Assembly (NCBI GenBank): GCA_903994455.1
Contig: CAJEXI010000018.1
Coordinates: 120 to 64,119, forward strand
DNA: 64,000 bases
Origin: an uncultured Chlorobiaceae bacterium
Lineage (GTDB): Bacteria; Bacteroidota; Chlorobiia; Chlorobiales; Chlorobiaceae
Direction of reading: 5' to 3'
Below, piece by piece: positions 5,667 through 62,543 of this stretch. The position numbers and the translations under genes are program-made. Within the stretch, counting starts at the first letter, position 1, and each line of letters opens with the position of its first letter. Below the pieces are notes generated by a model, which worked only from the letters and a program-made list of their open reading frames with translations, was not told where the DNA came from and did no database searches.

Positions 5667-8600
5667 CTAAAACTCTATGTTGTATTGCTGGTTAATGAGT
5701 TGCTCCTGTTTTTCAAGCTTTGAGGTTTGCTTTTTGGCTCTTCTTGCCTGCTTTTCAAGAGCAAACTGCTTTTTTTGTTCCAGAGCCCTGCTATAAGCCG
5801 CAATGGCCTCCTGTTTTCTCTTTTCTTCCTGTTCTCGCTGTAGACGATAAAACTCTCGTGATCGTTCAAGCATCTTCTCAAGCTCTTTTACGCGAACAAT
5901 TCCCTGTTCACCACTGATAGAGGGTGCTGGCGACCTCATTCCCGCATCCACAACGCATTGATCAAGCAGGCGGAACGAAGCCTCATAGGCAAACTCGTGA
6001 ATCAGTGGAAGATTCAAAGCCTGAAAAACGGACATCCACCCCTGCTTGTTGTCGGGATCGGAAGAGCGCACCAGAAGTGCCGGATTGAACTGATACCATC
6101 CTTGGGAAAGGCGTTGAAATAATGCCCGGTTATAGGCATAATCGCGCGACACCTCATTCCTTGCAAGAACCGACGAGAGATACTGACGCCTGTTGCGCTC
6201 CGGAGTAACAACATTGGCAGGCAAATTGGCCCAGACTTCCAGAATGGTGCTGGTGTCAACAGCTCCATAGTGAGGACGGGACTCCCGGAGAAAACGTGAT
6301 TTGAAGAGCACCCAAAGCGTCTGGAAAAGGAAGTATTCAGAGAGATGGCGATCGAGGCGAACCATACGCTCCCCAGTGCTGACGTCAACACTGGCAGGAG
6401 CAAGCAGCTCATAGAGCGTACCAAAGTTTTTGCGCGCATAGTCTGGATGGTAAAAGGCTTTGCGCATGGCCCAGTGCAGGGCATTGTAACCATACTGATC
6501 GGTCTTTCCCCGGTCAGCGCCCCGTTCAAGCAATGCCTCCGTTAACGGCACATTGCTGGCAGCAGCGGCGGCCATAAGCGGAGTCTGGTTCATCGGCAAC
6601 CGATGATCAATACCATATTGCTCACACTGCTTCAGAATATTTTTTGTATGCAAGCTGAAATAGGGAACATAACTTTTCCGTCCGATGGTCTCCTTATGAT
6701 CGTCAAATGCGCCGCGAGCATCAAATTGCGCATCTTGTGAAAGCCTTTCCGCTAACACAGGCTCGTCATGGCAGGTAGCATACTCATAAAGTTGCTGCTT
6801 GGCCTTGCTCCCTGGCACCTTGTCGCGGAAAACTTTGACAAGAAGCTCTTGCAGACGAGATTCGTCAAATATCGGCCATGGCGGCGGAACCTCCTTCAGA
6901 ATGGTGCGTCGAATCGCCTCGGCCTGCTCCTGTTTGCCCTGAAGTTCAAGCTTTCTGGCCTCTTTCTGCCACTCTTCAAGGGATGATTCTGATGCGTCAA
7001 CACTCACCTTGCCATCGCTTGCCAAATCAAGGAGGGTAAACAACCGATGACCGGTATCAGATTCAATGATGTAGATGTTCTTGATCGCTCTCGTCAAGGC
7101 TACATAAATCGCATTGACAAAAAATTTATAGACTTCAAGCGATTTGTCGCCTTTGTCTTTTGCCCTTCGATACTCAAGCGTTTCAACAGAAAGTTCCTCT
7201 TTGGAGACACCGTCAACGATCTCATTAAACTCTGCCCGATAGCCCGAAACAAACTTGAAAAGGACGATATTGTCATACTCGAGCCCTTTGGCTTCATGAA
7301 TAGAGAACAGCAGAGGTGTTGCAAAATATTTTCGCGCCTCCAGTTTATCCTCTTCACGCATCACCAGCACCGCAAAACGGGTTGATTGTTTCGTTTTTTT
7401 GTCGAGATCACGTTTTGCCGCATCCTTGTCGGCCATCAGGACTACCTGTCCCTTTTCTCCACCCACTGCCTGAACCAGAAAGTTGCTCTCCCTGTCAATA
7501 GAACCAAAACGCTGATGCTTGATTTTGAGCAGTTGATTGGAAATCCTGGTCGCTTCGGTTCCATTACGAAAATTGGCCGTGAGCACACTCAACTGCTGCT
7601 GGCCAGCCAGTTTCGGATCATTCCAGAAGAGCGTTTTAACCTGACTCCAGGCGAAAAAGTTGGGATGCACAATCTGGTTGGAATCGCCACAGAGAAGGAA
7701 GTGTCCCCGTTTTTTCAGCATTTTCAGCACCAGTGAGAGCTGGGCGATGGTCAAATCCTGCACCTCGTCAATCACAATAAAATCGTATCGGGGAGTAGCA
7801 ACCCACTTATGGGCCACCAGATTCAGGTCGAACAGCCCTTCGTCAGCAAGCCACTGTCGATATTTTTCGAAGAGATCGTACAGTTTGTCGCGCTCATTTT
7901 CAGGAAAAATAGATTGGCGAATCCCGAGGAGCCGATAGTCATCGCGACTCAGTGCAGCTCCTTCACTGGCAGTAATGACACCACGAATCTCCTCAAATGC
8001 CTGATGAGCATCAATACCTTTAAAGGAGTTCTGCATCCTGATAAACCAGGCTGAAAAATCGCGCCATGTAGCCTCTCTGCCAGAAGGAACCCGAAGAGAC
8101 TCAATAAATTCAAGGTATGAAAGAAACTGCGCCTCTTGTCCGGAGTGCTCAAATCCATTGGCATAGTAGATGTTGCGGGCGTTCTGCGCAAGATAGACCG
8201 AGTGGGTCACATAGAGCACCTCGCCTTCGGCATCTTTCAGCTTCTCAAGCATCAGAGCGGTTTTTCCACTGCCGGCGCTGCCAACAATAATCAGTGGAGG
8301 TTTCTGTCGGTAAACGGATTCCTGTGCATCATCAAAGGAGATGGGTTTATCGAGGAGATGAATTGCGGTATGCTCGGGATGGAGGTAGCGTAAAGGCTCG
8401 GCCTCCTTTATCGCTTCAGTGGCATCGATATCAGGAATTTTCAGGTCATCAATCACTGCCCCCCGCAAAAAACGGGATTTATCATAATTATGGCTGGTAA
8501 TAACTTCCAGCATCAGGGCACAGATCTCGTCGCCATGACGCACAATGCTAAAAAGCAATCGGTTGGCCGCATCGAGCTTTGCCCTGTAAAACTTGCCATG

Positions 8601-8726
8601 GGTGAGATTGACCAGTTTTTTGACCTGGGCCGCACGAAAATCGTCACGGGCAAGCGCTTCCTTCACTTTGCGATAGCCTGCTTTGACGTTGGAGGTATCA
8701 AGACCTGTATATTCAAGAATTTTCAT
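5667..8726 (-). CDS. SF1 (UvrD-like) helicase with RelE-like N-terminus and C-terminal ankyrin repeat
   Basis: GSAGSGKT, IVIDEVQD, LCGDSNQ, NFRN, SIHEAKGLEY, YVALTRA; ankyrin QTPLMAAA..LLERGAD..GYNALHWA; N-terminal VKKL..YRAKL..RLLF..LEVI..HNY resembles RelE/ParE. Confidence 0.8.
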   Translation of the reverse strand: MKILEYTGLDTSNVKAGYRKVKEALARDDFRAAQVKKLVNLTHGKFYRAKLDAANRLLFSIVRHGDEICALMLEVITSHNYDKSRFLRGAVIDDLKIPDIDATEAIKEAEPLRYLHPEHTAIHLLDKPISFDDAQESVYRQKPPLIIVGSAGSGKTALMLEKLKDAEGEVLYVTHSVYLAQNARNIYYANGFEHSGQEAQFLSYLEFIESLRVPSGREATWRDFSAWFIRMQNSFKGIDAHQAFEEIRGVITASEGAALSRDDYRLLGIRQSIFPENERDKLYDLFEKYRQWLADEGLFDLNLVAHKWVATPRYDFIVIDEVQDLTIAQLSLVLKMLKKRGHFLLCGDSNQIVHPNFFAWSQVKTLFWNDPKLAGQQQLSVLTANFRNGTEATRISNQLLKIKHQRFGSIDRESNFLVQAVGGEKGQVVLMADKDAAKRDLDKKTKQSTRFAVLVMREEDKLEARKYFATPLLFSIHEAKGLEYDNIVLFKFVSGYRAEFNEIVDGVSKEELSVETLEYRRAKDKGDKSLEVYKFFVNAIYVALTRAIKNIYIIESDTGHRLFTLLDLASDGKVSVDASESSLEEWQKEARKLELQGKQEQAEAIRRTILKEVPPPWPIFDESRLQELLVKVFRDKVPGSKAKQQLYEYATCHDEPVLAERLSQDAQFDARGAFDDHKETIGRKSYVPYFSLHTKNILKQCEQYGIDHRLPMNQTPLMAAAAASNVPLTEALLERGADRGKTDQYGYNALHWAMRKAFYHPDYARKNFGTLYELLAPASVDVSTGERMVRLDRHLSEYFLFQTLWVLFKSRFLRESRPHYGAVDTSTILEVWANLPANVVTPERNRRQYLSSVLARNEVSRDYAYNRALFQRLSQGWYQFNPALLVRSSDPDNKQGWMSVFQALNLPLIHEFAYEASFRLLDQCVVDAGMRSPAPSISGEQGIVRVKELEKMLERSREFYRLQREQEEKRKQEAIAAYSRALEQKKQFALEKQARRAKKQTSKLEKQEQLINQQYNIEF

Positions 8727-8989
8727 GTGACGACGACTTCACTATACTCAGAACTCAAGCGATGCAAAAATATCATCGCGGAAAAATGTCTTTTAAGGTA
8801 ACTCTTTTCAGCAATAAAGCCGAAGCGATAAAATTGTCAAATATCCATTGCCGGATACCTTCATGAGGTTATATTGTGACCTGTGTCAATGAATATTTGG
8901 CTATAAAAATTGCTTTCTTTTGAAAGGGTAACTCTTAAATATAAAAAGGGTTGCCTTTTCATTTTCATATTTGACTTCGGAGAGTTCCC

Positions 8990-11900
8990 ATGAAAATTTC
9001 CCGCTTGTTCACCAGGCCCGGTGAAAATGTTTTTGACCGTTTCGATTATGCTTTTCGCAGCTCTGTTTTGAGGAATCCTGATGGGTCAAAGGTTTTTGAA
9101 ATGAATAATGTAGAGGTGCCGCAGCAGTGGTCGCAGGTTGCTGCCGATATTTTGGCACAGAAATATTTTCGTAAAACAGGCATTCTCCAGCGTGACGCAG
9201 AGGGGAACGTGATGACCGACAGCGAGGGCAAGCCGGTGACGGGCAGTGAGCATTCGATCAAACAGGTGGTGCATCGTATGGCTGGTTGCTGGAAGGAGTG
9301 GGGCGAAAAGAACCAGTATTTTGATACGCCTGATGATGCCCAGTCCTTTTATGATGAAGTTGCCTTCATGATTCTGGGGCAGATGGGCGCACCCAATTCG
9401 CCGCAGTGGTTTAATACGGGGCTCCATTATGCTTATGGAACAACCGGGCCAGCCCAGGGTCATTATTATGTTGATCCCGAGAGTGGCGAGGTGAAGGAGT
9501 CGGAGGATGCCTATTCCCGGCCACAAGCTCATGCCTGTTTTATCCAGTCGGTCAATGATGATCTGGTCAACGATGGCGGAATTTTTGATTTGGCGATGCG
9601 TGAGGCGAGGGTCTTCAAGTTCGGCAGTGGATCGGGCACCAACTACTCGAACCTTCGTTCGGGCGGGGAAAAGCTGAGCGGCGGGGGAAGCTCTTCGGGG
9701 CTGATGAGCTTTCTGAAAATTTTTGATTCGGCAGCAGGGGCTATAAAGTCGGGCGGCACCACCCGTCGGGCGGCCAAGATGGTGATTGTTGATATTGATC
9801 ATCCTGATGTCGAGAAATTTATTGAGTGGAAGGCGAAGGAGGAGGACAAGGTGGCCTCGCTGGTGGCCGGATCGAGAATCTGTTCCCGTTTCCTTCAGGC
9901 GATTGTTGAAGAGGCGCTTGCCAATGGCGTTGACCGCAAGATAAATCCTCGATTGAATCAGTTGATCCAGAATGCGTTGAGCCGTGCTGTACCGATGAGC
10001 TACATTATTCGTGTGCTTGCTCTTGTTGAGCAGGGGTACACCACGCTTGATTTTGCGGAGTACAACTCTAATTACGAATCGGAAGCTTATGCAACGGTTG
10101 GCGGGCAGAACTCCAACAATACGGTGCGGGTGACCAACGAGTTCATGAAGGCGGTTGAAAATGATGATGTCTGGCACCTTCGTCAGCGCACCACAGGCAA
10201 GACCGCAAAAGTTGTCAAGGCGCGTGACCTCTGGAAAAAAATTCTGCTCGGTGCCTGGAAGTGTGCCGATCCTGGTTTGCAGTTCGATACCACCATCAAC
10301 GAATGGCACACCTGCCCGAAGAGCGGCCGCATTAATGCGAGTAATCCCTGTTCGGAGTATATGTTTCTTGATGATACGGCCTGTAATCTTGCCAGTCTCA
10401 ACCTGATCCATTTTGTTGATGAAGCATCGGGCACCATGAAGGTGAAAGAGCTGCAGCACGCTTCGGCGTTATGGACGGTGGTGCTTGAAATTTCGGTGCT
10501 GATGGCCCATTTTCCTTCAAGGGATATTGCTCGTCTGAGCTATGAGTTCAGAACACTTGGCCTCGGGTTTGCCAATCTTGGCACCGTGCTGATGGTGCTC
10601 GGGATTCCTTACGATTCACCAAAAGCGCTGGCCCTTGCGGGTGCAATCTCCGCCTTGATGACCGGTCAGGCTTATGTCACCTCGGCTGATATGGCCCACG
10701 ATCTTGGCACGTTCAGCGGTTATGCCGCAAATGCCAATGAGATGCTTCGCGTGATTCGCAACCATCGTCGGGCGGCACGCAACCTCCCGGAAGAGGAGTA
10801 TGAGGGGTTGACGGTCAAGCCGCGTGGCATTGATTCGGAGTACTGCCCCAAAGAGCTTTTTGAGGCGGCAGGAACGGTGTGGGATAAAGCGTTACAGAAG
10901 GGCGAAAAGTATGGCTTCCGAAATGCCCAGGTGAGCGTTATTGCTCCGACCGGCACCATCGGGCTGGTTATGGATTGCGATACCACCGGAATTGAGCCGG
11001 AGTTTGCGATTGTCAAATTCAAGAAGCTTGCCGGGGGAGGCTATTTCAAGATTGTCAATCAGTCGGTGCATAAAGCCCTTGAACGGCTCGGTTATAGCAG
11101 TGTGCAGATTGATGCCATTGAACACTATTGCAAGGGTCATGGTACGCTTGCCGGTTCGCCCTCAATCAATCAGCAGTGGCTGAAGAGCAAAGGGTTTACG
11201 GACGAAAAGATTGAGGTGGTCGAGTCGCAGCTTCCGACGGTTTTTGATATTCGCTTCGCCTTCAACAAGTGGATTTTGGGCGAGGATTTCTGCATCGCAC
11301 TTGGCTTTACCAAAGAGCAGCTCGACGATTCTGATTTTGACATGCTTCTGGCTCTTGGCGCTACTGCTGCGGATGCCGAGGCCGCCAATGACTACGTTTG
11401 TGGCACCATGACCATCGAGGGGGCTCCTCACCTGAAGCTCGAACATTTAGCGGTATTCGACTGTGCCAGCAAGTGCGGCAGAAAAGGGCTCCGCTACATC
11501 AAGCATAAGGCCCATGTGTATATGATGTCAGCAGTTCAGCCCTTTATTTCAGGCGCGATTTCCAAAACGGTCAATATGCCCGGCACCGCCACAACCGCCG
11601 ATATTGGAGAGGTGTACCAGACGGCCTGGCTGCTTATGGTCAAGGCGGTCGCGATCTATCGTGATGGCTCAAAACTCTCCCAGCCGCTCAATATTTCAAG
11701 CTATCAGGATCTCGACGAGGTTATCATGCTTGGAACGGAGGAGAACCTTGATGAAACCAAAGGGCCGAGAGAGGTTCAGGAGCGGATTGTCGAGAAGGTC
11801 TATCATCGTTCCGAGCGCCGGATGCTGCCGAAACGGAGAAAGGGCTATATCCGCGAAGCCTATGTTGGCGGCCACAAGGTGTTTCTCAGAACAGGGGAGT

Positions 11901-49858: not shown

Positions 49859-50328
49859 AACGACTTTTTTTGTTGATGAGCACCTTGTTCCATACCCGGA
49901 TCAATGGGAATATCTTGCATCGATTCAGAAAATCTCCAGCATTGAATGGAGAAAACCTCACCAATATCTTTCTGTTGCATGGGCGGTTAACAAAAAAACA
50001 GCGTTCAGCGACTCTTTCTGAGCTGGCAGAACTGGATGGTGCAACTCCACGCATCATTCTGGCGACTGGGCACCTGATTGGCGAGGGTTTTGATCATCCG
50101 CCTCTTGATACCATGGTGCTCGCCATGCCGATCTCGTGGAAAGGAACATTACAGCAATATGCCGGGTGCCTGCACCGGGAACATGCCTCCAAGCAGGATG
50201 TGCGCATTTACGATTACATTGAGCACGATAATGTGCTGCTTGCGAGAATGTGGCAAAAACGCTATCATGGTTATCAGGCAATGGGGTATCGGGTCAGACC
50301 CCGTCATGAAGAGCTTAAACCATCATAA
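49859..50328 (+). pseudogene. Internally deleted remnant of a primase-SF2 helicase (TOTE-like) gene
   Basis: FVDEHLVPYPDQWEYLASIQKIS (one frame) joined to the helicase C-terminus LATGHLIGEGFDHPPLDT..ISWKGTLQQYAGCLHR..IYDY (another frame). The ATPase domain is missing. Confidence 0.7.
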
Positions 50329-50332
50329 ACCT

Positions 50333-50710
50333 ATGGCAGAATACGGTGAGTGGAATCGTAAGGGCGCGACTCTCAGCGATGTTACGGCGAAGAAGGAGTA
50401 CGGTGTAGACTATACTTTTATTGTCAATGGTATTTCTGCAGGCAAGCTGGAATACCGTGAAGGCAATATGCAGGGTAATCCCTGGTTGAGGGTATTGAGA
50501 GGGCAGTTGGAACAGCTAATCACCGAAAAGTTTGGCGCTGATTATTTGGTGGAGCAAAACCGCCAGACTGAATTGCGGGTGATCAAAAACGAAATGACGG
50601 TAATGAAGAAGAGACTGAAAGAACTGGAGGCCAGAAAAGCAGAGCTTGAAGTGGCTTTGATGAAGGCGGATATATCGCCAGATGAAGGTAAAATGGGTTT
50701 ATCGGTATAA
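50333..50710 (+). CDS. Hypothetical protein with a C-terminal coiled coil
   Basis: ATG at 50333, 125 aa, MAEYGEWNRKGATLSDVTAKKEYG...; heptad-rich tail. Confidence 0.65.
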   Translation: MAEYGEWNRKGATLSDVTAKKEYGVDYTFIVNGISAGKLEYREGNMQGNPWLRVLRGQLEQLITEKFGADYLVEQNRQTELRVIKNEMTVMKKRLKELEARKAELEVALMKADISPDEGKMGLSV

Positions 50711-50899: not shown

Positions 50900-52849
50900 A
50901 TGGCACTGCATGTGTTTGTCGTCATGCCCTTCGGTGTTAAGGGTGGGATTGATTTCGATAAGGTCTACAGCGATTATCTTAAACCCGCATTGGAAGGAGA
51001 AGGGTACGAGGTTTTTCGGGCTGATGAAGAGCGGTGCGGTGGAAATATTCTGGAGGATATGTTTCAGGAGCTGCTTCTGGCTGATCTGGTCATTGCCGAT
51101 CTCTCCATCGATAACCCGAATGTCTGGTATGAACTGGGTGTACGGCATGCCCTGAGATCAAGTGGTATTGTTCTTGTTCAGAGCAAGCGGGACTATCAGC
51201 CATTTGATCTTGCTCCTGTCCGTAAGTGCAATTACAATATTAAGGACGGCCTCCCTGACCCTGCGTTCATAGATAAAGACAAGGCAGCACTTGCCACAAT
51301 GGCCAGAATGACAATGGCCACCTGGCATGGGCACAGGATAAGTCCGGTCTATCACATGCTTCCCTATTTGCGGGAACCCGAATGGAAGTTACTGCGAGTA
51401 GGCAATGTGCGCAAGTTCTGGCAAAAGCATGAAGCTTGGGAAATGTGCATCAAAATAGCAGAGCGAAAGCGATATCCGGGAGATATTATAGTGTTGGCAG
51501 CAGAAGCGCCTGTTCAAGCACTTCAGCTTGAAGCGTACAGAATTGCTGGTAAATCTCTTGTCAAGTTGGGTCAATTTGCTTTTGCCTTTGAACAATACAA
51601 AAAAGCATTGGGTATAGATTCCGAAGATCTTGAAAGCAAGCAGCAAACAGGGGTTATACTTGGTCGATTACAGAAGTATGTTGAGGCTCGGATACACCTG
51701 GAGAAATTGGTTAAAGATAATCCCGGAAACGCAGAGTCGGTTGCACTTCTGGGACGGGTAGAAAAAGATGCTTGGACATGGGAGTGGAGAAGGGATGGAT
51801 GGTCAGTAGCGGATATGCAACATAAGGCTGTCAGTGCCGATGCACTTCTTCGAGAGTCGATCAAAGCGTATGCAAGGGGTTTTGTAATGGAACCCGCACA
51901 TTATTATTCAGGAATTAATGCAGTAACCCTTATCAGGCTGTTGCATCACTTGACTGGAGACGAGAGCCTGCTTTCTCAATGCAAAGAGATGGAGGGAGGT
52001 ATTCGCTGGGCTCTTAAAAGTGCGCTCTCAAAAGAGACAATCCATAACAAGGACTACTGGGCAAGGGTTACACTTGGAGATCTTGATCTGCTTGCTTCTG
52101 AACAGAGTATTGTTGAGCGATCATACCGTGATGCTGTTATTGCTGCTGATAACTGGTTCTCCCTCGACTCATCCCGCCAGCAACTCCATCTTCTGCGTGA
52201 TTTGGGATTTCGACCCGAAGTGGTTACTTCCGTACTTGATATTTTCGATCACGCCATCGAAAAATTTGAAGCTCCGATAACTCCTCGCCAGGTGTTCCTG
52301 TTCAGTGGTCATCTCATCGATGCGCCGGATCGAGCGACTCCGCGTTTTCCGGCAGAAAAGGAGTCCGTAGCGGCACAAAAAATTGCCGAAGCACTTGATC
52401 AACTTGGAGCCGGGCCGGGTGACCTTGCCCTGACCCAGGGAGCCTGTGGAGGTGATCTTCTTTTTACGGAAGCTTGTTTGAATCGAGGGGTGAAGGTGAA
52501 CTGGTTGCAACCGTTTCTTGAACCGGAATTCATCCAGAACTCCGTTGTCTGTTGCGCGGAAGAGTGGCGCAAACGCTATTTTGATGCAAAGTCCGGACGT
52601 GAAGATTCCATTCGATCTGCTCCAGACGCACTTGGTGATATGCCGTCAGGAGCCAGGGAGGGTTACCCCTACGAGCGCTGCAACCTCTGGCTGCTTTACA
52701 CAGCACTCTCTTACGGTATCGACAAGGTGCGCTTTATCTGTTTGTGGAATGGTGGTGGAGGCGATGGCCCTGGCGGGACCGCGCACATGTATAATGAAGT
52801 AAAACAAAGGACAGGGCAGGTAACATGGATAGACACCCGGGCGTTGTAG
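50900..52849 (+). CDS. Deoxyribohydrolase/TIR-like + TPR (DUF4071/MAP3K TRAFs-binding-like) + SLOG-like protein
   Basis: FVVMPFG..FRADEE..MFQELLLADLVIADLS..NPNVWYELGVRHA; TPRs with LLGRVEKD.W, YSGINA, DYW...TLG; C-terminal FSGH..PRFP..GACGGDLLF.E..WNG..GDGPGGTAHM. Confidence 0.75.
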   Translation: MALHVFVVMPFGVKGGIDFDKVYSDYLKPALEGEGYEVFRADEERCGGNILEDMFQELLLADLVIADLSIDNPNVWYELGVRHALRSSGIVLVQSKRDYQPFDLAPVRKCNYNIKDGLPDPAFIDKDKAALATMARMTMATWHGHRISPVYHMLPYLREPEWKLLRVGNVRKFWQKHEAWEMCIKIAERKRYPGDIIVLAAEAPVQALQLEAYRIAGKSLVKLGQFAFAFEQYKKALGIDSEDLESKQQTGVILGRLQKYVEARIHLEKLVKDNPGNAESVALLGRVEKDAWTWEWRRDGWSVADMQHKAVSADALLRESIKAYARGFVMEPAHYYSGINAVTLIRLLHHLTGDESLLSQCKEMEGGIRWALKSALSKETIHNKDYWARVTLGDLDLLASEQSIVERSYRDAVIAADNWFSLDSSRQQLHLLRDLGFRPEVVTSVLDIFDHAIEKFEAPITPRQVFLFSGHLIDAPDRATPRFPAEKESVAAQKIAEALDQLGAGPGDLALTQGACGGDLLFTEACLNRGVKVNWLQPFLEPEFIQNSVVCCAEEWRKRYFDAKSGREDSIRSAPDALGDMPSGAREGYPYERCNLWLLYTALSYGIDKVRFICLWNGGGGDGPGGTAHMYNEVKQRTGQVTWIDTRAL

Positions 52850-52903
52850 TGGCTTCTGATTAAGAGGCATCCGAACAAATAACCGCATAACCGCTGATAA
52901 ACC

Positions 52904-54070
52904 ATGAACGAAAAACTTGCTGCACGCTTGCAATCTCCAGGCCCTAAACGCTTGCTTGCTCTTGACGGAGGAGGAATACGCGGGGTATTGACACTCGAAT
53001 TTCTCGAACGCATCGAGGCAATTCTTGCAAACCGAAGCGGGAATCCTGAACAATTTCGTCTCAGCGATTACTTTGACCTTATTGGTGGAACTTCTACTGG
53101 TTCTATTATTGCAGCAATGCTTGCCTTTGGATACAGTGTGGCTGAAATCAAGGATCTGTATGACGTGTTGGGTAAAAAAGTGTTCAAGCACCACCTCTGG
53201 AGAAGGAGAGGTATTTTTGTTTCAAAATTTCCTGCAAAGCCACTTCGTGATGCATTGGAGTTTTATCTTGGAGAGAAGACTACTCTGGGAAGTGAGATGA
53301 TTTTGACAGGCCTCATGGTCATGACCAAACGTCTTGATACCGGAAGCCCCTGGCCTCTGCACAATTGTCCCAACGGCCCATACTATGATCCAGATCCATG
53401 GAATTCCGATGCCACTGCCAACAAGGATTATCTGCTTGCTGCCATTGTTCGTGCAAGTACCGCCGCGCCCAGCTTTTTCAAGCCAGAGCGTATCATCGTT
53501 GCAAACAAGCCGAATGGAGAAAAGGTGGAGGGTATTTTTGTCGATGGTGGTGTCAGTCCCTCGAATAATCCTGCACTCCAGTTACTCATGCTTGCAGCTC
53601 TCAAAGGCTATGGGTTTCGCTGGCCTCTTGGAGCTGACAAGCTCTTGCTTGTCTCTGTTGGTACGGGATCATTTTTTTCAAATTACAACCATGCCAAGTG
53701 GTTGCACAAACTTCCAGCCAATGTGGCACTCTACTCGTTGAAGGGGCTTATGGACGACAGTGATAACCTTGCTCAGACCATGCTCCAGTGGATGGCACGC
53801 ACCTCAACCCCTTGGATGATCGATAGTGAAATCGGCAATCTGCGCAGTGATCAACTTGGTCGAGAAGAGTTGCTAACCTACTTGCGCTATAATGTGAAAT
53901 TTGATGAACAATGGCAGAAAGAGAATTTAAAAATGGGTTTCACCACAGCTAAAATCAAGGAGCTTGAAGCGATGGATAATTCTAAAAACATTGATGAACT
54001 CGCAGATGTGGGTCGAAGGTATGCACAGGTACAGGTACGTGAAAGCCACTTTCCGAGATCTTTTGACTAA
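52904..54070 (+). CDS. Patatin-like phospholipase
   Basis: LALDGGGIRG, GTSTG, ASTAAP..F, FVDGGV; catalytic Ser/Asp dyad intact. Confidence 0.92.
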   Translation: MNEKLAARLQSPGPKRLLALDGGGIRGVLTLEFLERIEAILANRSGNPEQFRLSDYFDLIGGTSTGSIIAAMLAFGYSVAEIKDLYDVLGKKVFKHHLWRRRGIFVSKFPAKPLRDALEFYLGEKTTLGSEMILTGLMVMTKRLDTGSPWPLHNCPNGPYYDPDPWNSDATANKDYLLAAIVRASTAAPSFFKPERIIVANKPNGEKVEGIFVDGGVSPSNNPALQLLMLAALKGYGFRWPLGADKLLLVSVGTGSFFSNYNHAKWLHKLPANVALYSLKGLMDDSDNLAQTMLQWMARTSTPWMIDSEIGNLRSDQLGREELLTYLRYNVKFDEQWQKENLKMGFTTAKIKELEAMDNSKNIDELADVGRRYAQVQVRESHFPRSFD

Positions 54071-55370: not shown

Positions 55371-56669
55371 ATGCGTCGATTTATTGACGACGAACTTCTG
55401 AGCTGGCAGGTGAGTACAAGGCGAAAACCGCTGATTCTGCAAGGGGCACGCCAGGTTGGTAAAACATGGTCGCTCAAGGATTTTGGGAAAAACCGGTTTG
55501 AATCGCTTGCTCTGGTTGATCTGGAGCGCAACCATTCTCTGCGGCGGGTGTTTGATGGCGATCTTCATGCAGCGCGTATCTGTTCTGACCTTGAGGTACT
55601 GCTTCGGCAGAAGATTACTCCGGGAAAAACCCTGCTCTTTTTTGATGAAATCCAGGCTGCTCCTCGAGCCATAACCGCCTTGCGCTACTTTTATGAGGAG
55701 ATGCCGGAGCTGCATGTTGTGGCGGCAGGGTCACTCCTTGAATTTGCGTTTAAGGAGGCTTCGTTTCCTGTCGGCAGAATTCAGTTTCTTAACCTCTATC
55801 CGCTCTGTTTTGCAGAATATCTGGAGGCAATTGGGAACACTCCTGCGGCTTCGGCTCTGCTTGGCAATCCGGCTGAAATCTCACCTGTTGTGCATGAACT
55901 GCTCCACGATGAGCTGAAGCGCTATTTTTTTATTGGAGGTATGCCTTCGGCGGTCAATGCTTATGTGGAACATGGTTCGATGAGGGATGCGTTTGAAGTG
56001 CAGGGGGAGATTGTCGAATCATACCGAATGGATTTTGCCAAATATACGCCACAGGTAGACCGTTACTGCCTCGACTCGGTCTTCATCTCACTTGCGCAAC
56101 GTGTTGGAGATCAGATAAAATATGCACGGCTGGGAGAGGGATACAGCAATCTGACGTTGAAAAAGGCTTTTGATGCGCTATGTCTGGCTCAGCTTGGCCG
56201 AAGGATTCCGTCGGCTGATCCATCAGCTCTCCCTCTGGGGGCGAGCGCTTCGGCCAAGGTGTTCAAGGCGCTCATGCTTGATCTTGGATTAATGCGTTAT
56301 CTCTCTGGTATGCCTGACGATATTGAGTATGCCAAGGGGAACCTGCTCACCATGTATCGAGGTGCCATGGCCGAGCAATTTGTGGGTCAGGAGATGCTGG
56401 TGTCGCAAAAAGGGGCTCTCTATTACTGGGATCGGCAGGCGAAAAGCAGCTCCGCCGAGGTTGATTATCTGGCTGTTCTTGATGGCAGAATTCATCCGGT
56501 AGAGGTAAAAAGCGGCGCCACAGGCAGCTTGAGAAGTTTGCATCTTTTTCTGGCCTCATATCCCGAGTGTGGCAAGGCGTTTGTCTTTTCTGATCGCCCT
56601 TATGCAGATCTTCCTGAGCAGAAGGTCACGTTTTTACCGCTCTATGCTGCTTATGCTGCTACGAAGTGA
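55371..56669 (+). CDS. AAA_14 + DUF4143 ATP-binding protein
   Basis: GARQVGKT, FFDEIQ, AGSLL, GGMP, DLGL, YYW..EVDY..PVEVKSG. Confidence 0.9.
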   Translation: MRRFIDDELLSWQVSTRRKPLILQGARQVGKTWSLKDFGKNRFESLALVDLERNHSLRRVFDGDLHAARICSDLEVLLRQKITPGKTLLFFDEIQAAPRAITALRYFYEEMPELHVVAAGSLLEFAFKEASFPVGRIQFLNLYPLCFAEYLEAIGNTPAASALLGNPAEISPVVHELLHDELKRYFFIGGMPSAVNAYVEHGSMRDAFEVQGEIVESYRMDFAKYTPQVDRYCLDSVFISLAQRVGDQIKYARLGEGYSNLTLKKAFDALCLAQLGRRIPSADPSALPLGASASAKVFKALMLDLGLMRYLSGMPDDIEYAKGNLLTMYRGAMAEQFVGQEMLVSQKGALYYWDRQAKSSSAEVDYLAVLDGRIHPVEVKSGATGSLRSLHLFLASYPECGKAFVFSDRPYADLPEQKVTFLPLYAAYAATK

Positions 56670-56853
56670 GTGGAATGCGGGGAATTCTGGAACTCCTTTG
56701 ATTATCTCCCGGAATTCCAGGTGGTGCTGTAATAATCAGAAAAAAATGTAAGTTAGAACCGGTATGGGATTGGACTCTCATCTCTGCAAAAAAGAACGGA
56801 TTTCCTTTTTGGGGTGCTTCACAGAAGAACCGAACGCCAACGTAAACGAATAA

Positions 56854-59800
56854 ATGATTCAACTCGAACAACTCCAACCCAACGCCGCACTGCGAGGCAT
56901 TGTACCGGGCTCCTCGGTTACGGTCGTCAGTGTGCAATGGTTTGGTTCGGAGGCGCTTGAGCTGACCTACAAAACGCCGGATGGCAAAGTGGCCAATGAG
57001 CTGGTCTATCGCCACGATGAACCGCGCCTGGAGATTGTTGAGCAGGGACGACCCTGGAGTTTTGACGGTGATGGCGCACTCTTCCGTCTGGTCTCTGAAG
57101 CGCAGCGCATTCGGTTGGCTCACCTGTTCGATCCGGTGCTGGCGGTCCATACTTCCAATATTGAGCCACTGCCACACCAGATTACGGCGGTCTATGAAGC
57201 CATGCTGCCTCGCCAGCCCTTACGCTTTCTTTTGGCGGACGACCCCGGCGCAGGCAAAACCATTATGGCTGGCTTGCTCATCAAGGAGCTGATTGCCCGT
57301 GGTGACCTGCAACGATGTCTGATTGTTTGCCCCGGAAGTTTGGCGGAGCAGTGGCAGGATGAACTCAAGCGCCGTTTTCATCTCCCCTTTGAGATTCTCA
57401 CCAACGATAAACTGGAAGCAGCCCGTACCGGAAACTGGTTCCTTGAAACCAATCTTGTCATTGCCCGCCTCGATAAACTCTCGCGGAATGAAGAGGTTCA
57501 GTTAAAGCTGCAAGCTCCGGATTGTCGTTGGGATCTGGTTATCTGTGATGAAGCCCACAAAATGTCGGCCACGGTTTTTGGCGGTGAAACCAAATACACC
57601 AAACGCTACCGCCTTGGGCAACTGCTCTCGACTTTGACGCGTCATTTTCTGTTAATGACGGCCACACCGCATAACGGCAAGGAGGCTGACTTTCAGCTTT
57701 TTATGGCACTGCTCGATGGCGATCGCTTCGAGGGCAAGTTCCGAGACGGCGTGCATTCATCCGACGTTTCCGACTTGATGCGTCGCATGGTCAAGGAGAA
57801 TTTGCGGAAGTTCGATGGCACACCTCTCTTCCCTGAGCGTATTGCCTACACACTTCCTTACCATCTGTCGCCCCAGGAGGAAGCACTCTACAAAGCCGTC
57901 ACAAGCTATGTTCGTGAAGAGTTCAATCGCGCTGAGGCGCTGGAAAATAACAAGCGAGCAGGTACGGTAGGATTTGCCTTAACCATCCTGCAACGGAGGC
58001 TTGCTTCATCCCCGGAAGCCATTTACCAGTCGCTGCGCCGCCGCAAAGAAAAACTTGAGAGCCGACTGCGTGAACTTGAGCTGCTCCAGCGTGCCGGTCA
58101 GGTTGCACCGAACCCGTCGTTTGGTGCACCAACGATTGACAGCGACGATATTGAGGACCTCGATGAGGCCCCGGAGAACGAAGTTGAAGCAATCGAAGAA
58201 GAGATCCTCGATCAGGCCACCGCCGCACGCTCAATTGCTGAGCTGTACAGTGAGATTGCAACCCTGAAGAACCTCGAAGCGACCGCCTTGCTTGTCCGAA
58301 GCAGTGGCGCTGATACCAAATGGGCGGAACTCTCAGGCCTGCTTGGTGAAATATTTACCACCGCAGCGCGGCAGCAATTGGTTGAAGCGGAAGTGCCCTA
58401 TGGTTCCGGTCCTATTCCGCCTCCAAAACCTTCGCCGCATCAGAAGCTGGTTGTTTTCACCGAGCATCGCGATACACTCAACTATCTGGAAGAACGCATC
58501 ACCCGATTTCTTGGACGCAAGGATGCTGTGGTCATTATCCACGGAGGCACAGGCCGGGAACATCGTCTCAAGGTACAGGAATCTTTCAAACACGACCCAG
58601 CCGTTCAGGTGCTGCTGGCAACCGACGCTGCCGGTGAAGGAATCAACCTCCAGCGCGCCCACCTGATGGTCAACTATGACCTGCCCTGGAACCCCAACCG
58701 TCTTGAACAGCGCTTCGGACGTATCCACCGGATTGGCCAGACTGAGGTCTGCTACCTCTGGAATCTGGTGGCCGACGACACCCGTGAAGGCGATGTCTAT
58801 CGTCGACTGCTTGAAAAGCTGGAACAGGCTCGACAGGCTTTGGGCGGTCAGGTTTTCGATGTGCTGGGCAAACTCGCCTTTGAAGCCGATGGGCATCTCA
58901 TGTCGCTGCGTGACCTGCTCATCGAGGCAATCCGTTATGGCGAAAAACCCGAAACCAAAGCATTTCTCACCACGGTACTTGATACCGCTCTCGACAGCAG
59001 CCACCTGCAAATCCTGCTTGAAGAGAGGATGCTGGTTCATGATGCCATGGATGCCAGCAACGTGCAGCGCATCCGTGCGGATATGGAGCGTGCCGATGCT
59101 CGCAGGCTGCAACCACATTACGTCGAGTCATTTTTCCTGGAAGCATTCAAGCGACTTGGCGGCAATGCCCGACAGCGTGAACCCCGCCGATTCGAGATCA
59201 CCCATGTGCCCGCTCCGATCAGGAACCGTGACCGCCTCATTGGCATCGGAGAGCCCGTGCTGCCACGCTATGAGCGAATCGTTTTCGAGAAAACCCTGAT
59301 TGCCCCGCAGGGAGAGCCCCTGGCCGCATTTGTCTGCCCCGGTCATCCACTGCTCGATTCCGTTATTGACCTGACCCTCGAACGGCATCGCGATTTGCTG
59401 AAACGTGGTACTGTGCTGGTTGATGAACGAGACACTGGAACCAGACCAAGAGTGCTCTTCTATCTGGAACACGCCATTCAGGATGCCAGTCTTACCCGTG
59501 ACGGCAACCGCCGCATAGTCTCCCGTCGCCTGATGTATGTCGAACTGGACGACCAGGGAACAGTCCGTCACGTTCAATACGCACCCTATCTCGATTTTCG
59601 GCCTCTGGCTACAGAGGAACCCGGTGTTGAAGCCCTGCTCGATCGCCCGGAATGCCAGTGGATCACCCGTGAACTGGAGCAGAGTGCCCAGACTTATGCC
59701 ATCACCCGCGTCGTGCCAGAGCATCTTGCAGAAATCAAAGGGCGCAAACTTGAACTGATAGCCAAAACCGAGGCCGCAGTAAAAGAACGGCTAACAAAGG

Positions 59801-60444
59801 AGATTACCTACTGGGATCATCGGGCCGAAGAGCTGAAGCTGCAAGAGCGGGCAGGAAAACCCAATGCCCGACTCAACTCCGGCGAAGCACGAAAGCGTGC
59901 CGATTTGTTGCAGGGTCGCTTGCAAAAAAGGCTCGAAGAGTTACGGCTTGAAGCGCAGCTTTCGCCACTCCCGCCATTGGTGCTTGGTGGCTTGCTCGTT
60001 GTGCCGATTGGGCTCATAAATGCCATGACGGGCCGACCTGAGACAATGATGGGTTCTCCGACCGATACCCAGGTGAGCGCAGCTCGTGCCAGGGCAATCA
60101 TCATGGATATTGAGCGCACTCTCGGCTTCGACCCCACTGACCGGGAACTTGAAAAGCTTGGCTACGACATTGAAAGCCGCATTCCCGATACAGGGAAATT
60201 GCGTTTCATTGAAGTGAAGGGGCGTGTTTCAGGCGCCCCAACCATCACCGTTACCCGCAACGAGATTCTCTACTCGCTCAATAAGCCTGATGACTTTATT
60301 CTCGCCATTGTCGAGTTTCTTGATGCCGAAACGCACAAGGTGCATTACCTTAAAAGACACTTCAATCGTGAACCCGATTTTTGGGTCTGTAGCGTCAATT
60401 ATATTTTTACCGATCTTCTTGCCAAAGGAGAGCTTCCATCATGA
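56854..60444 (+). CDS. SNF2-family helicase with a C-terminal DUF3883 (PD-(D/E)XK) nuclease domain
   Basis: LPHQ, LADDPGAGKT, DEAH, TATPH, ATDAAGEGINLQ, EQRFGRIHRIGQ, GYDIES..FIEVKGR. Confidence 0.9.
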   Translation: MIQLEQLQPNAALRGIVPGSSVTVVSVQWFGSEALELTYKTPDGKVANELVYRHDEPRLEIVEQGRPWSFDGDGALFRLVSEAQRIRLAHLFDPVLAVHTSNIEPLPHQITAVYEAMLPRQPLRFLLADDPGAGKTIMAGLLIKELIARGDLQRCLIVCPGSLAEQWQDELKRRFHLPFEILTNDKLEAARTGNWFLETNLVIARLDKLSRNEEVQLKLQAPDCRWDLVICDEAHKMSATVFGGETKYTKRYRLGQLLSTLTRHFLLMTATPHNGKEADFQLFMALLDGDRFEGKFRDGVHSSDVSDLMRRMVKENLRKFDGTPLFPERIAYTLPYHLSPQEEALYKAVTSYVREEFNRAEALENNKRAGTVGFALTILQRRLASSPEAIYQSLRRRKEKLESRLRELELLQRAGQVAPNPSFGAPTIDSDDIEDLDEAPENEVEAIEEEILDQATAARSIAELYSEIATLKNLEATALLVRSSGADTKWAELSGLLGEIFTTAARQQLVEAEVPYGSGPIPPPKPSPHQKLVVFTEHRDTLNYLEERITRFLGRKDAVVIIHGGTGREHRLKVQESFKHDPAVQVLLATDAAGEGINLQRAHLMVNYDLPWNPNRLEQRFGRIHRIGQTEVCYLWNLVADDTREGDVYRRLLEKLEQARQALGGQVFDVLGKLAFEADGHLMSLRDLLIEAIRYGEKPETKAFLTTVLDTALDSSHLQILLEERMLVHDAMDASNVQRIRADMERADARRLQPHYVESFFLEAFKRLGGNARQREPRRFEITHVPAPIRNRDRLIGIGEPVLPRYERIVFEKTLIAPQGEPLAAFVCPGHPLLDSVIDLTLERHRDLLKRGTVLVDERDTGTRPRVLFYLEHAIQDASLTRDGNRRIVSRRLMYVELDDQGTVRHVQYAPYLDFRPLATEEPGVEALLDRPECQWITRELEQSAQTYAITRVVPEHLAEIKGRKLELIAKTEAAVKERLTKEITYWDHRAEELKLQERAGKPNARLNSGEARKRADLLQGRLQKRLEELRLEAQLSPLPPLVLGGLLVVPIGLINAMTGRPETMMGSPTDTQVSAARARAIIMDIERTLGFDPTDRELEKLGYDIESRIPDTGKLRFIEVKGRVSGAPTITVTRNEILYSLNKPDDFILAIVEFLDAETHKVHYLKRHFNREPDFWVCSVNYIFTDLLAKGELPS

Positions 60445-60466
60445 ACCTGCTTGTGAGGATACACCT

Positions 60467-61063
60467 ATGAGTGATTACGACAATCTGCCAGATTTGTCTG
60501 TCTCTGAGCCAGCAGGCTTCAATGAAATTGCGCAACTCATTCGTTCGGCACGTGAACGCACACTTTCAGCCGTCAATTCATCCTTGATTGAACTCTATTG
60601 GGAGATTGGCAGAATGCTCAGCGCTCGAATCACTAGCGATGGCTGGGGAAAAGGCACTGTAGAACAGCTTGCAATCTATATTCAAAAGCAGCATCCAAGC
60701 CTGCGAGGCTTTACCCGGGCAAACCTGTTTCGAATGCGTAAATTTTCGAAACCTGGTTGGCTAATGAAAAAGTCGCAACGCTGTTGCGACAATTACCCTG
60801 GTCATCTCATCTGCACATCATGGCCAAAACAAAACGGCCGGAAGAGCAGGAGTTTTATCTGCGCATGGCTATCCAGCAACGTTGGCCAGTGCGCGAAGTT
60901 GCCAGACAGATCGACAGCGCTTTGTTTGAGCGAGCCGTGCTCAATCCGCCAAAACTCTCAACAGCGTTGAGAGAATTGCATCCAGGCGCAGAAAGCCTTT
61001 TTCGCGATGCTTATGTTGTTGAATTTCTCAACCTGCCTGACGACCATCGCGAGACGGACTTAA
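60467..61063 (+). pseudogene. DUF1016 (YhcG-like) protein, frameshifted and lacking its C-terminal nuclease domain
   Basis: AVN..LIELYWEIG, GWGKG, RGFTRANLFRMRKF; a 1-nt loss in the T-run 60743-60746; then QLPWS.HL, EQEFY, FRDAYVVEFL, ETDL, after which homology stops. Confidence 0.85.
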
Positions 61064-61145
61064 GTAATCTTTGCCATCCCGATTTTGCTTTCTGTAGTGT
61101 AAATTGCAATTTTGCTGATCTCTTCGTCCGTGCTGAGGTACCACA

Positions 61146-62543
61146 ATGAAACTTGCTAAAATTGACATCACCTACTTTCGCTGCTTTGAATCGCTTGCAG
61201 TCAAACTTCACCCCGACATCAATGTCATCATTGGTGCCAATGGCGCAGGGAAAAGTAGCATCCTTGATGCCATCGCCATTGCGCTGTACGAAATAATAGC
61301 AGCAAATGGTGCGGGGGGCAAGAGCCAGCGGAAGATGCAGGGTGCTGCACTTTTGCCTACTGATATTTACGTTGACCCTTCAGAGAAAGATCCCCTTCTT
61401 AGGCGAAAGTCTTTTGTTCAGCTTAGCGCAATGGCCTCAGATTACTACTACATCGATGAAAATTCTCTCAAACCACCTCTTGACGAAGAATCGGTGCTGG
61501 ATTGGACAGAACATATTGCCTATCGACCGCCGACAAGTTTCTCATACGATACCAGTACATCAGAAAGAGTATCCGAACTTCACCGATATATAACGCACCT
61601 TTGGGAGGAAATCCGCAAAAGTCCGCAAGCATTGATTCCATTGCCTGTTGTGGCGTATTACCGTGCCACTCGGAGAATGGGGGGGATGCCGGAATTTGGA
61701 GATATTTTCAAACTCGACCTTGACAGAGACAAGGCATTCGTCAGTGCCCTTAATGCTGGCGCAAATTTTACGGCGATGTGCCAGTGGTTCTACCTGCGAG
61801 AGAACGCCGAGCTCCGTGCCAATGTAAACGCCCAGAGTGGCGACAGGAAGGAGTTTGCTGACTTGCGTGCTGTACGACAGGCATTGAAACTTACAATCGA
61901 AGGTTTGGAGCGAGTCTATTTTGATGGCAGCCCGCCACGACTGATGGTTGAAATCAGGGAGTTCGATGGCAGCACCCGAGCATTCGAGTTGGCGCAACTG
62001 AGTGACGGCTACCGGAATCTGCTTGCCTTGGTGCTCGACTTCGCTCGTCGGCTTGCACAGGCCAATCCGAACTGGCCAAATCCGCTTGAAGCTCCGGGTA
62101 TTCTGATGATTGACGAGATTGAGCTGCATCTTCACCCTCGCTGGCAACAGAAGGTCATTCCCGCTCTCCGGGCAGTTTTTCCTAACACCCAGCTCATTGT
62201 ATCAACACACAGCCCGGCGGTGCTCACCACCGTACGCCGCGAACATATCAAACTGCTTGGCGCTGACCATCAGTTTGAGCAGATTCCTAATGATGTAGGT
62301 ACCTACGGCGCGGACAACTCCCGTGTTCTTGCCGAGGTGTTTGGTGCTTACCCACGACCTCAAAATATTCATTCAGTCCAACAATTAGCTGAATACTGGC
62401 AGGCAGTGGAAGCTCAAGAACACGATACCGATCAAGCAAAAGCTCTACGTCAAGAACTTGAATCAGCATTGGGCACAAGCGATCCCGATCTTCTTCGCGC
62501 CGATCTTAGGATAAAGCAGTTACAATTTCAGAAGCAACGATGA
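61146..62543 (+). CDS. ABC/AAA_21 ATPase, PtuA (Septu/retron)-like
   Basis: FRCF, GANGAGKSS, YY..R, QLSDG, LMIDEIELHLHPRWQQ, STHSP. Confidence 0.85.
   Translation: MKLAKIDITYFRCFESLAVKLHPDINVIIGANGAGKSSILDAIAIALYEIIAANGAGGKSQRKMQGAALLPTDIYVDPSEKDPLLRRKSFVQLSAMASDYYYIDENSLKPPLDEESVLDWTEHIAYRPPTSFSYDTSTSERVSELHRYITHLWEEIRKSPQALIPLPVVAYYRATRRMGGMPEFGDIFKLDLDRDKAFVSALNAGANFTAMCQWFYLRENAELRANVNAQSGDRKEFADLRAVRQALKLTIEGLERVYFDGSPPRLMVEIREFDGSTRAFELAQLSDGYRNLLALVLDFARRLAQANPNWPNPLEAPGILMIDEIELHLHPRWQQKVIPALRAVFPNTQLIVSTHSPAVLTTVRREHIKLLGADHQFEQIPNDVGTYGADNSRVLAEVFGAYPRPQNIHSVQQLAEYWQAVEAQEHDTDQAKALRQELESALGTSDPDLLRADLRIKQLQFQKQR

Follow-up and report, generated by a model that had tools for sequence, protein, structure and literature searches.

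Bacterial conflict systems with a glycosidase-TPR core were predicted by Burroughs and Aravind in 2020, as recounted in the available portions of three later papers (10.1101/2023.05.26.542521, 10.64898/2025.12.03.692087, PMC8195603). According to the first, as far as its text was at hand, the 78 Tpr assemblies of that survey include 5 YspA-Tpr and 4 Patatin-Tpr combinations, with fusions and rearrangements noted (10.1101/2023.05.26.542521); the accessible text of the third derives components of the ASK signalosome from bacterial conflict systems (PMC8195603). Here we describe a likely member of this predicted anti-phage class, a two-gene cassette at positions 50900–54070 of a 64,000-nucleotide stretch of DNA (the window) from an uncultured Chlorobiaceae bacterium (contig CAJEXI010000018.1). 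Gene 1 encodes a three-domain protein, which we call the hub, and gene 2 a patatin-like phospholipase. Going by the Pfam entry, 'TPR-S systems' is taken here as the name of the class.

The glycosidase-TPR core is known, having been predicted and then tested as BcTir/BcTpr and as Thoeris type VIII. BcTpr of Bacillus cereus has a MilB-like head followed by TPRs and converts nicotinamide adenine dinucleotide (NAD+) to an isomer of cyclic ADP-ribose (cADPR); its residues N82 and E86 are required for NAD depletion, for production of the isomer and for defence. It binds cADPR and defends only together with a catalytically dead TIR partner (from the available portion of 10.1101/2023.05.26.542521). 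For Thoeris type VIII, the text at hand also credits the TPR prediction to Burroughs and Aravind 2020; neither SLOG nor patatin is described there for its ThsI protein, and the word 'patatin' is absent from that text (10.64898/2025.12.03.692087).

The original prediction for the window, made from the sequence letters, called the pair an undescribed system. That adjective has to be given up, as the glycosidase and TPR-S core, the kinship with ASK and the YpsA and patatin partners are in print, and phage assays exist for two relatives of the core. The exact combination of DRHyd, TPR-S and YpsA with a patatin is unconfirmed in the 2020 survey, as far as its content could be seen, and the survey form is a prediction only. 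A literature search, in which most subscription journals were not covered, found no experimental study of the SLOG-plus-patatin form.

Architecture of the hub and the patatin

Both open reading frames (ORFs) of the cassette are open. The features below were assigned from profile searches, structural alignments, motifs and the ratio of non-synonymous to synonymous substitution rates (dN/dS).

50900–52849, + strand: gene 1, three-domain hub (DRHyd + TPR-S + YpsA-type SLOG), 649 amino acids; profiles, model alignment, dN/dS
50900–51328, + strand: DRHyd/NDT/MilB-like head, amino acids 1–143, with M9, N72-P73-N74 and E78 (codon 51131–51133); VIA-align, motif spacing
51425–52276, + strand: TPR-S / MAP3K_TRAF_bd scaffold, amino acids 176–459; Pfam above cut-off, structural match
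52283–52846, + strand: YpsA-type SLOG tail, amino acids 462–649; structural match to YpsA (2nx2)
52850–52903, + strand: spacer of 54 base pairs (bp), likely a TIR-deletion junction; weak alignment with the related locus L002, comparison with the related locus L081
52904–54070, + strand: gene 2, patatin-like phospholipase, 388 amino acids, with DGGGIRG, Ser64 and Asp214; Pfam, motifs, dN/dS

Two intact, co-oriented genes 54 bp apart are what the original prediction had reported, and all the motifs it quoted are present. Gene 1 contains NPNVWYELG (72–80), SGH (469–471), GACGGD (514–519) and GDGPGGT (621–627), and gene 2 contains DGGGIRG (21–27), GTSTG (62–66) and DGG (214–216).

An AlphaFold2 model of gene 1 (predicted local distance difference test 88.3, predicted template modelling score 0.86) was aligned structurally in three parts. 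The modelled head resembles nucleoside deoxyribosyltransferase (NDT; 6evs, VIA-align Z 13.8) and MilB (4ohr, Z 13.6), in a tie with TIR domains (Z 12–13.8). Across 111 homologues, the top-scoring of 2543, no substitution occurs at N72, P73 or N74, and E78 is conserved in at least 90%. This alignment was relied on for residues 72–78 because their conservation in a set of 72 proteins is circular, the peptide having been the search pattern. The scaffold scores above cut-off for Pfam TPR-S (PF20308; 57.7 bits, cut-off 27.6) and for MAP3K_TRAF_bd/DUF4071 (PF13281; 33.3 bits, cut-off 24.1), and its top structural match is the central regulatory region of ASK1 (5ulm; Z 16.5, root-mean-square deviation (rmsd) 3.7, 261 residues aligned). 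The tail has no Pfam match and superposes on YpsA (2nx2; Z 15.7, rmsd 3.0, 157 aligned), with G470, H471, D474, R482, G517, D519, R593, N595 and W616 kept in 72 of 72 proteins. For YpsA-type SLOG domains, sensing and degrading derivatives of ADP-ribose (ADPR) are both candidate roles in the available portion of PMC9503650. The earlier calls of a DRHyd head, ASK1-type TPRs and a SLOG domain are borne out by these Pfam matches and model alignments. A PDB sequence search with the hub alignment gave TPR matches only among the best 60 of 135, and PADLOC, which has no model for the hub, gave a weak TIR match only.

Gene 2 has the fold and the DGGGxRG, GxSxG and DGG motifs of a patatin-like phospholipase and scores 103.9 bits against Pfam Patatin (cut-off 27.7), in agreement with its earlier description as catalytically intact. 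It has no predicted membrane helix and is a soluble patatin. All 47 partner patatins of related loci retain Ser64, and 46 of the 47 retain Asp214. Among solved sequences, the cGAMP-activated lipase CapV is closest (E 5e-34, template modelling score about 0.7), tied with a plant patatin; ligand-activated patatins are therefore a precedent. The score against the CapV equivalog NF041079 is below its cut-off (104.3 bits, cut-off 200), as is that against the DS2 equivalog.

With the DRHyd + TPR-S conflict systems gene 1 shares the glycosidase head, the TPR-S scaffold and the kinship with the ASK signalosome, and its relatives have the variable linked TIR, SLOG, patatin or protease partners of that class. 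It also matches BcTpr in the spacing of M, NPN and Glu (N80-P81-N82...E86 in BcTpr), followed by TPRs; BcTpr, as far as it is described in the text at hand, differs in having 415 amino acids, neither SLOG nor lipase, and a TIR-dependent defence. ThsI of Thoeris type VIII, likewise from partial text, is akin to gene 1 by description in its CMP-hydrolase domain and TPRs, and acts in a cADPR-dependent defence. Short TIR-linked homologues are 25–29% identical to gene 1, and a TIR-linked 423-amino acid homologue from Firmicutes is 26% identical over 419 columns; BcTpr and ThsI themselves were compared by description only. A TIR protein from Lactiplantibacillus gave no match to the PDB entry of BcTir.

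Type VIII Thoeris is defined, in the available text, by an adjacent TIR (ThsB), whereas the window locus has none, and because this linked TIR is missing the cassette falls outside that type. Gene 2 has the patatin fold and catalytic dyad of the CBASS effectors CapV and CapE, but it scores below the CapV cut-off and equally with a plant patatin; CBASS membership was rejected, with no CD-NTase among the neighbours and no SMODS match in the genome (89% complete). Type I Thoeris was rejected as well, there being no SIR2 in gene 1 or in the window and no ThsA match in PADLOC; the single SIR2_2 match in the genome is on contig C31, outside the window. The original prediction, which placed the pair in neither CBASS nor type I Thoeris, stands in this respect. 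Compared with animal ASK1 (MAP3K5), whose regulatory region superposes on the TPRs, gene 1 has no kinase and carries a SLOG domain after the TPRs.

Partners of the hub

The pairing of hub and patatin was followed in GTDB genomes, where the best 80 of 584 confirmed stretches were kept, representing 79 loci. Partners on either strand within the locus were called with purpose-built hidden Markov models (HMMs), and a wide-flank subset kept 51 loci and dropped 28. Patatin is present in 42 of the 79 loci, directly adjacent to the hub in 37; the other partners are TIR (35), CHAT (9), SLATT (8), nSTAND1 (5) and SIR2 (2). Among the 51 well-flanked loci, 30 have patatin, 27 TIR and 21 both, leaving 9 with patatin and no TIR. 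The patatin partners are scattered over a quick tree of the hub and over many phyla. Within the family, a SLOG-bearing hub occurs in 11 of 122 genomes, 10 of them with patatin at the locus, while the contig of the eleventh stops at the patatin start. A strong patatin match (E <1e-50; next best 7e-20) was found in 11 family genomes, beside the hub in 10 and beside a NACHT-FGS protein in 1, and in 0 of 8 family genomes having the SLOG-less form only. A metagenome scan with the patatin gave four loci, two with the hub and two too short to judge, and viral contigs gave one partial match.

The pairing is not due to chance, since 10 of the 11 SLOG-bearing family genomes share patatin at the same locus. 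It is conserved, which answers a check proposed with the original prediction, yet not obligate; at other loci CHAT proteases, SLATT or TIR-STAND proteins occur. The partners look exchangeable, because CHAT is mostly found where patatin is absent (7 of 21 well-flanked loci without patatin, 1 of 30 with it) and SLATT also occurs as a fusion with the hub. The 24 longer homologues listed contain hub fusions to TIR + AAA_35 (10), to SLATT (6 by the DUF4231 label, 7 by SLATT_1) and to ParA-type NTPases. Unrelated, swappable effectors would fit a diffusible signal.

Several related loci have arrangements of their own. In L027 (4133–6973) the hub is followed by a 946-amino acid fusion of TPR-S and patatin, an extra locus overlooked by the patatin HMM. 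Nine loci (L039, L005, L034, L045, L046, L065, L066, L072, L080) have a partner of 1600–2000 amino acids combining DUF7379, a lipase-like part and CHAT (+ TPR-S). The same patatin type, with an additional N-terminal domain of about 170 amino acids, adjoins a NACHT-FGS protein rather than a hub in L148 (3997–9023), and on a Rhizobium plasmid (L147, 6010–12642) the parts are rearranged as separate SLOG, DRHyd, double SLATT, patatin and DUF4071 genes. A recurrent membrane-like protein of 525–554 amino acids, with no Pfam match, lies 3' of the hub in L069 (8829–10493) and L074/L075 (8008–9585). Three records titled as archaea (L004, L007, L021) have the hub with SLATT or with SIR2 + nSTAND1 partners.

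The spacer, selection and the surrounding island

The nearest titled relatives of the window are Chlorobiaceae at 82–84% identity, so that the host is probably a green sulfur bacterium. In L002, which has 86–91% DNA identity and occupies the same site after typA, a gene for a 466-amino acid TIR protein separates hub and patatin. In L081 (90–91% DNA identity) the spacer is about 245 bp long (1624–1868) and matches the start of the L002 TIR gene (23/27, E 8e-5) and its downstream flank (56/64, E 2e-19), without the middle of that gene. The left part of the window spacer resembles the TIR start and the right part the downstream flank, both weakly, and the same holds for L003 and L082. The simplest reading of the spacers is that the cassette likely lost its TIR gene by deletion, because L002 has the intervening gene and L081 retains both its ends. 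This probable loss is absent from the original prediction. No TIR ORF is present at the window locus, and the L002 TIR protein has no tblastn match elsewhere in the genome, which is 89% complete.

The loci can be arranged as a stepwise loss, with the TIR gene whole in L002, its ends only in L081, and nothing but the junction left in the window, L003 and L082. The protein encoded by the L002 TIR gene (7926–9326) has a hydrophobic stretch and, by eye, an OmpA-like C-terminus without a Pfam match.

Values of dN/dS are 0.12–0.20 for gene 1 against four relatives and 0.15–0.23 for gene 2 against three, and the overall range of 0.12–0.23 includes comparisons between TIR-less relatives (dS 0.3–0.44). 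The cassette remains under purifying selection after the likely TIR loss. The patatin dS ranges from 0.27 to 1.37 among relatives, a spread that hints at recombination; either recombination or losses that were recent and independent could obscure the selection signal. The likely series of TIR loss from L002 through L081 to the window, with purifying selection persisting, is what is new here.

The cassette lies in a defence island spanning about 49.8–62.6 kb, downstream of typA, whose other features are the following.

49863–50328, + strand: TOTE primase-helicase remnant at the left edge of the island, after typA; two deletions relative to L002
54106–54843, + strand: EcoO109I-type restriction endonuclease gene, next after gene 2, broken by a premature stop
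55371–62543, + strand: remainder of the island, with AAA_14/DUF4143, an HmaA-like helicase, a split DUF1016 gene and a PtuA-like ATPase

The earlier description of a decaying island is confirmed by the TOTE remnant, the premature stop in the endonuclease and the split DUF1016 gene. For the HmaA-like helicase (PADLOC 1661 bits) and the PtuA-like ATPase (56854–62543) the usual partner genes are not among the scanned ORFs. Directly 5' of the hub, a 125-amino acid ORF with a coiled-coil end (50333–50710) belongs to no confident family, and its L002 counterpart has stops. Promoter and terminator scans gave counts of 12 and 10, close to the 7.4 and 5.4 obtained after shuffling.

Proposed mechanism and its alternatives

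We prefer the reading, at a probability of roughly 0.5, that the hub makes or relays an ADP-ribose-type signal that activates the patatin lipase, the two forming an anti-phage cassette. An NAD-linked, anti-phage function in general seems to us likely, and the module is real and conserved and probably working. The folds, the motifs, the linkage, the alternative partners and the purifying selection make up the observed part of the case.

In the resting state, the glycosidase head would be restrained by the TPR-S scaffold. The trigger releasing it would be a phage or stress cue, or else a molecule of the cADPR type made by a TIR protein; about half of the related loci encode such a protein in cis, and the window has likely lost its gene by deletion. 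The original prediction gave the sensing role to the TPRs; they may read a TIR-made signal instead of the phage, since the tested relatives bind or respond to cADPR. By analogy with BcTpr, Glu78 would then cleave NAD+ into an isomer of cyclic ADPR and deplete the NAD+ pool. The product might be bound by the SLOG tail, which would set a threshold or convert it, and the patatin would be switched on, leading to membrane breakdown and cell death before phage release.

Several points weigh against this reading. ThsI of Thoeris type VIII is an effector that receives TIR-made cADPR, which by analogy would reverse the glycosidase step, and we came across no description of a patatin that an ADPR-type signal activates. 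Nor is the pairing obligate, with none of the searched-for partners present in 7 of the 51 well-flanked loci. TIR also occurs in 21 of the 30 patatin loci of that subset; the window locus has none. Outside the family the reciprocal association is weaker: the patatin type was found in 5 of 401 sampled genomes, with the full hub adjacent in 1, itself a duplicate of a locus already counted; the other four have the short form (1), other SLOG/DUF4062-like neighbours identified by motif (1), the patatin alone (1) or a cut at the contig end (1). These counts include kin, which are not independent of one another, and there is overlap between the family and GTDB sets.

The alternative that survives best, though we hold it doubtful, is a Thoeris VIII-like arrangement in which a TIR makes cADPR and the hub, through its TPR-S or SLOG domain, and the patatin are both receivers; here unlinked TIR genes would supply the signal. 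ThsI is activated by TIR-made cADPR and may share an operon with a second effector, according to the available text of 10.64898/2025.12.03.692087. Many of the TIR proteins in the 27 well-flanked loci that have one carry an apparent catalytic Glu (by eye), annotated TIR genes lie close by in each of the 4 records examined for shorter, plasmid-borne homologues, and 11 contigs of the genome carry 15 TIR_2 matches that exceed the cut-off. Against parallel receivers speak the 9 of 30 patatin loci without TIR, the lack of a tblastn match to the deleted TIR in the incomplete genome, and BcTir/BcTpr, in which, as far as the text at hand goes, the TIR is catalytically dead and the signal is made by the Tpr protein (10.1101/2023.05.26.542521). 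About 9 of the 15 TIR_2 proteins resemble one expanded paralogous group (by eye).

Direct contact, with the hub binding the patatin to restrain or activate the lipase and the nucleotide domains acting as a switch, is unlikely. It has a parallel in BcTir and BcTpr, which work as a complex in the available account (10.1101/2023.05.26.542521), and across 43 loci the identities of hub and patatin correlate (Spearman 0.41, permutation p 0.001, without correction for shared ancestry). The coupling is loose, however, hubs 55–61% identical to that of the window being accompanied by patatins that are 33–63% identical; the patatin is replaced by structurally unrelated partners, and no hub-patatin fusion is among the 24 longer homologues listed.

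We consider it improbable that the pair is an orphaned remnant, non-working since the TIR loss and decaying along with the island. The deletion scar, the broken adjoining genes, the frameshift in the L002 patatin gene and the split or shortened hub or patatin genes in several other relatives would agree with decay; both frames are nevertheless intact, the low dN/dS extends to TIR-less relatives, and the hub-patatin adjacency of 37 of the 79 loci is common in other clades. That the pair senses redox or envelope stress, as ASK1 does in animals, and couples it to lipid remodelling is very improbable: the structural kinship with ASK1, the PASTA or CHASE2 domains on some partner TIR proteins and the lowering of reactive oxygen species by BcTir/Tpr (in the available portion of 10.1101/2023.05.26.542521) are outweighed in our view by the patchy distribution (11 of 122 family genomes), the defence-island site and the cell-killing partner types.

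As the class was predicted and its core tested, the surprise is modest. The SLOG-plus-patatin form of the preferred reading is widespread in poorly sampled phyla, and the three-gene version of the L002 type and the TIR-less version of the window, at the same site, provide a natural comparison. The two preprints, in the text available, differ as to the role of the glycosidase-TPR protein, which for BcTpr is to make the NAD-derived signal and for ThsI to receive it; the system bears on this point, on the switching of patatins by ADPR-type messengers and on the ligands of YpsA-type SLOG domains. Speculatively, TIR loss may have left a self-contained, TIR-independent system in which one ASK1-related polypeptide senses infection, its non-TIR glycosidase makes an ADP-ribose-type messenger that the YpsA SLOG tunes, and the patatin is the first example of a lipase that an NAD-derived signal activates; we regard this combination as rather unlikely. 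If it were true, it would suggest that the ancestor from which the ASK1 regulatory region descends had a site for an NAD-derived ligand.

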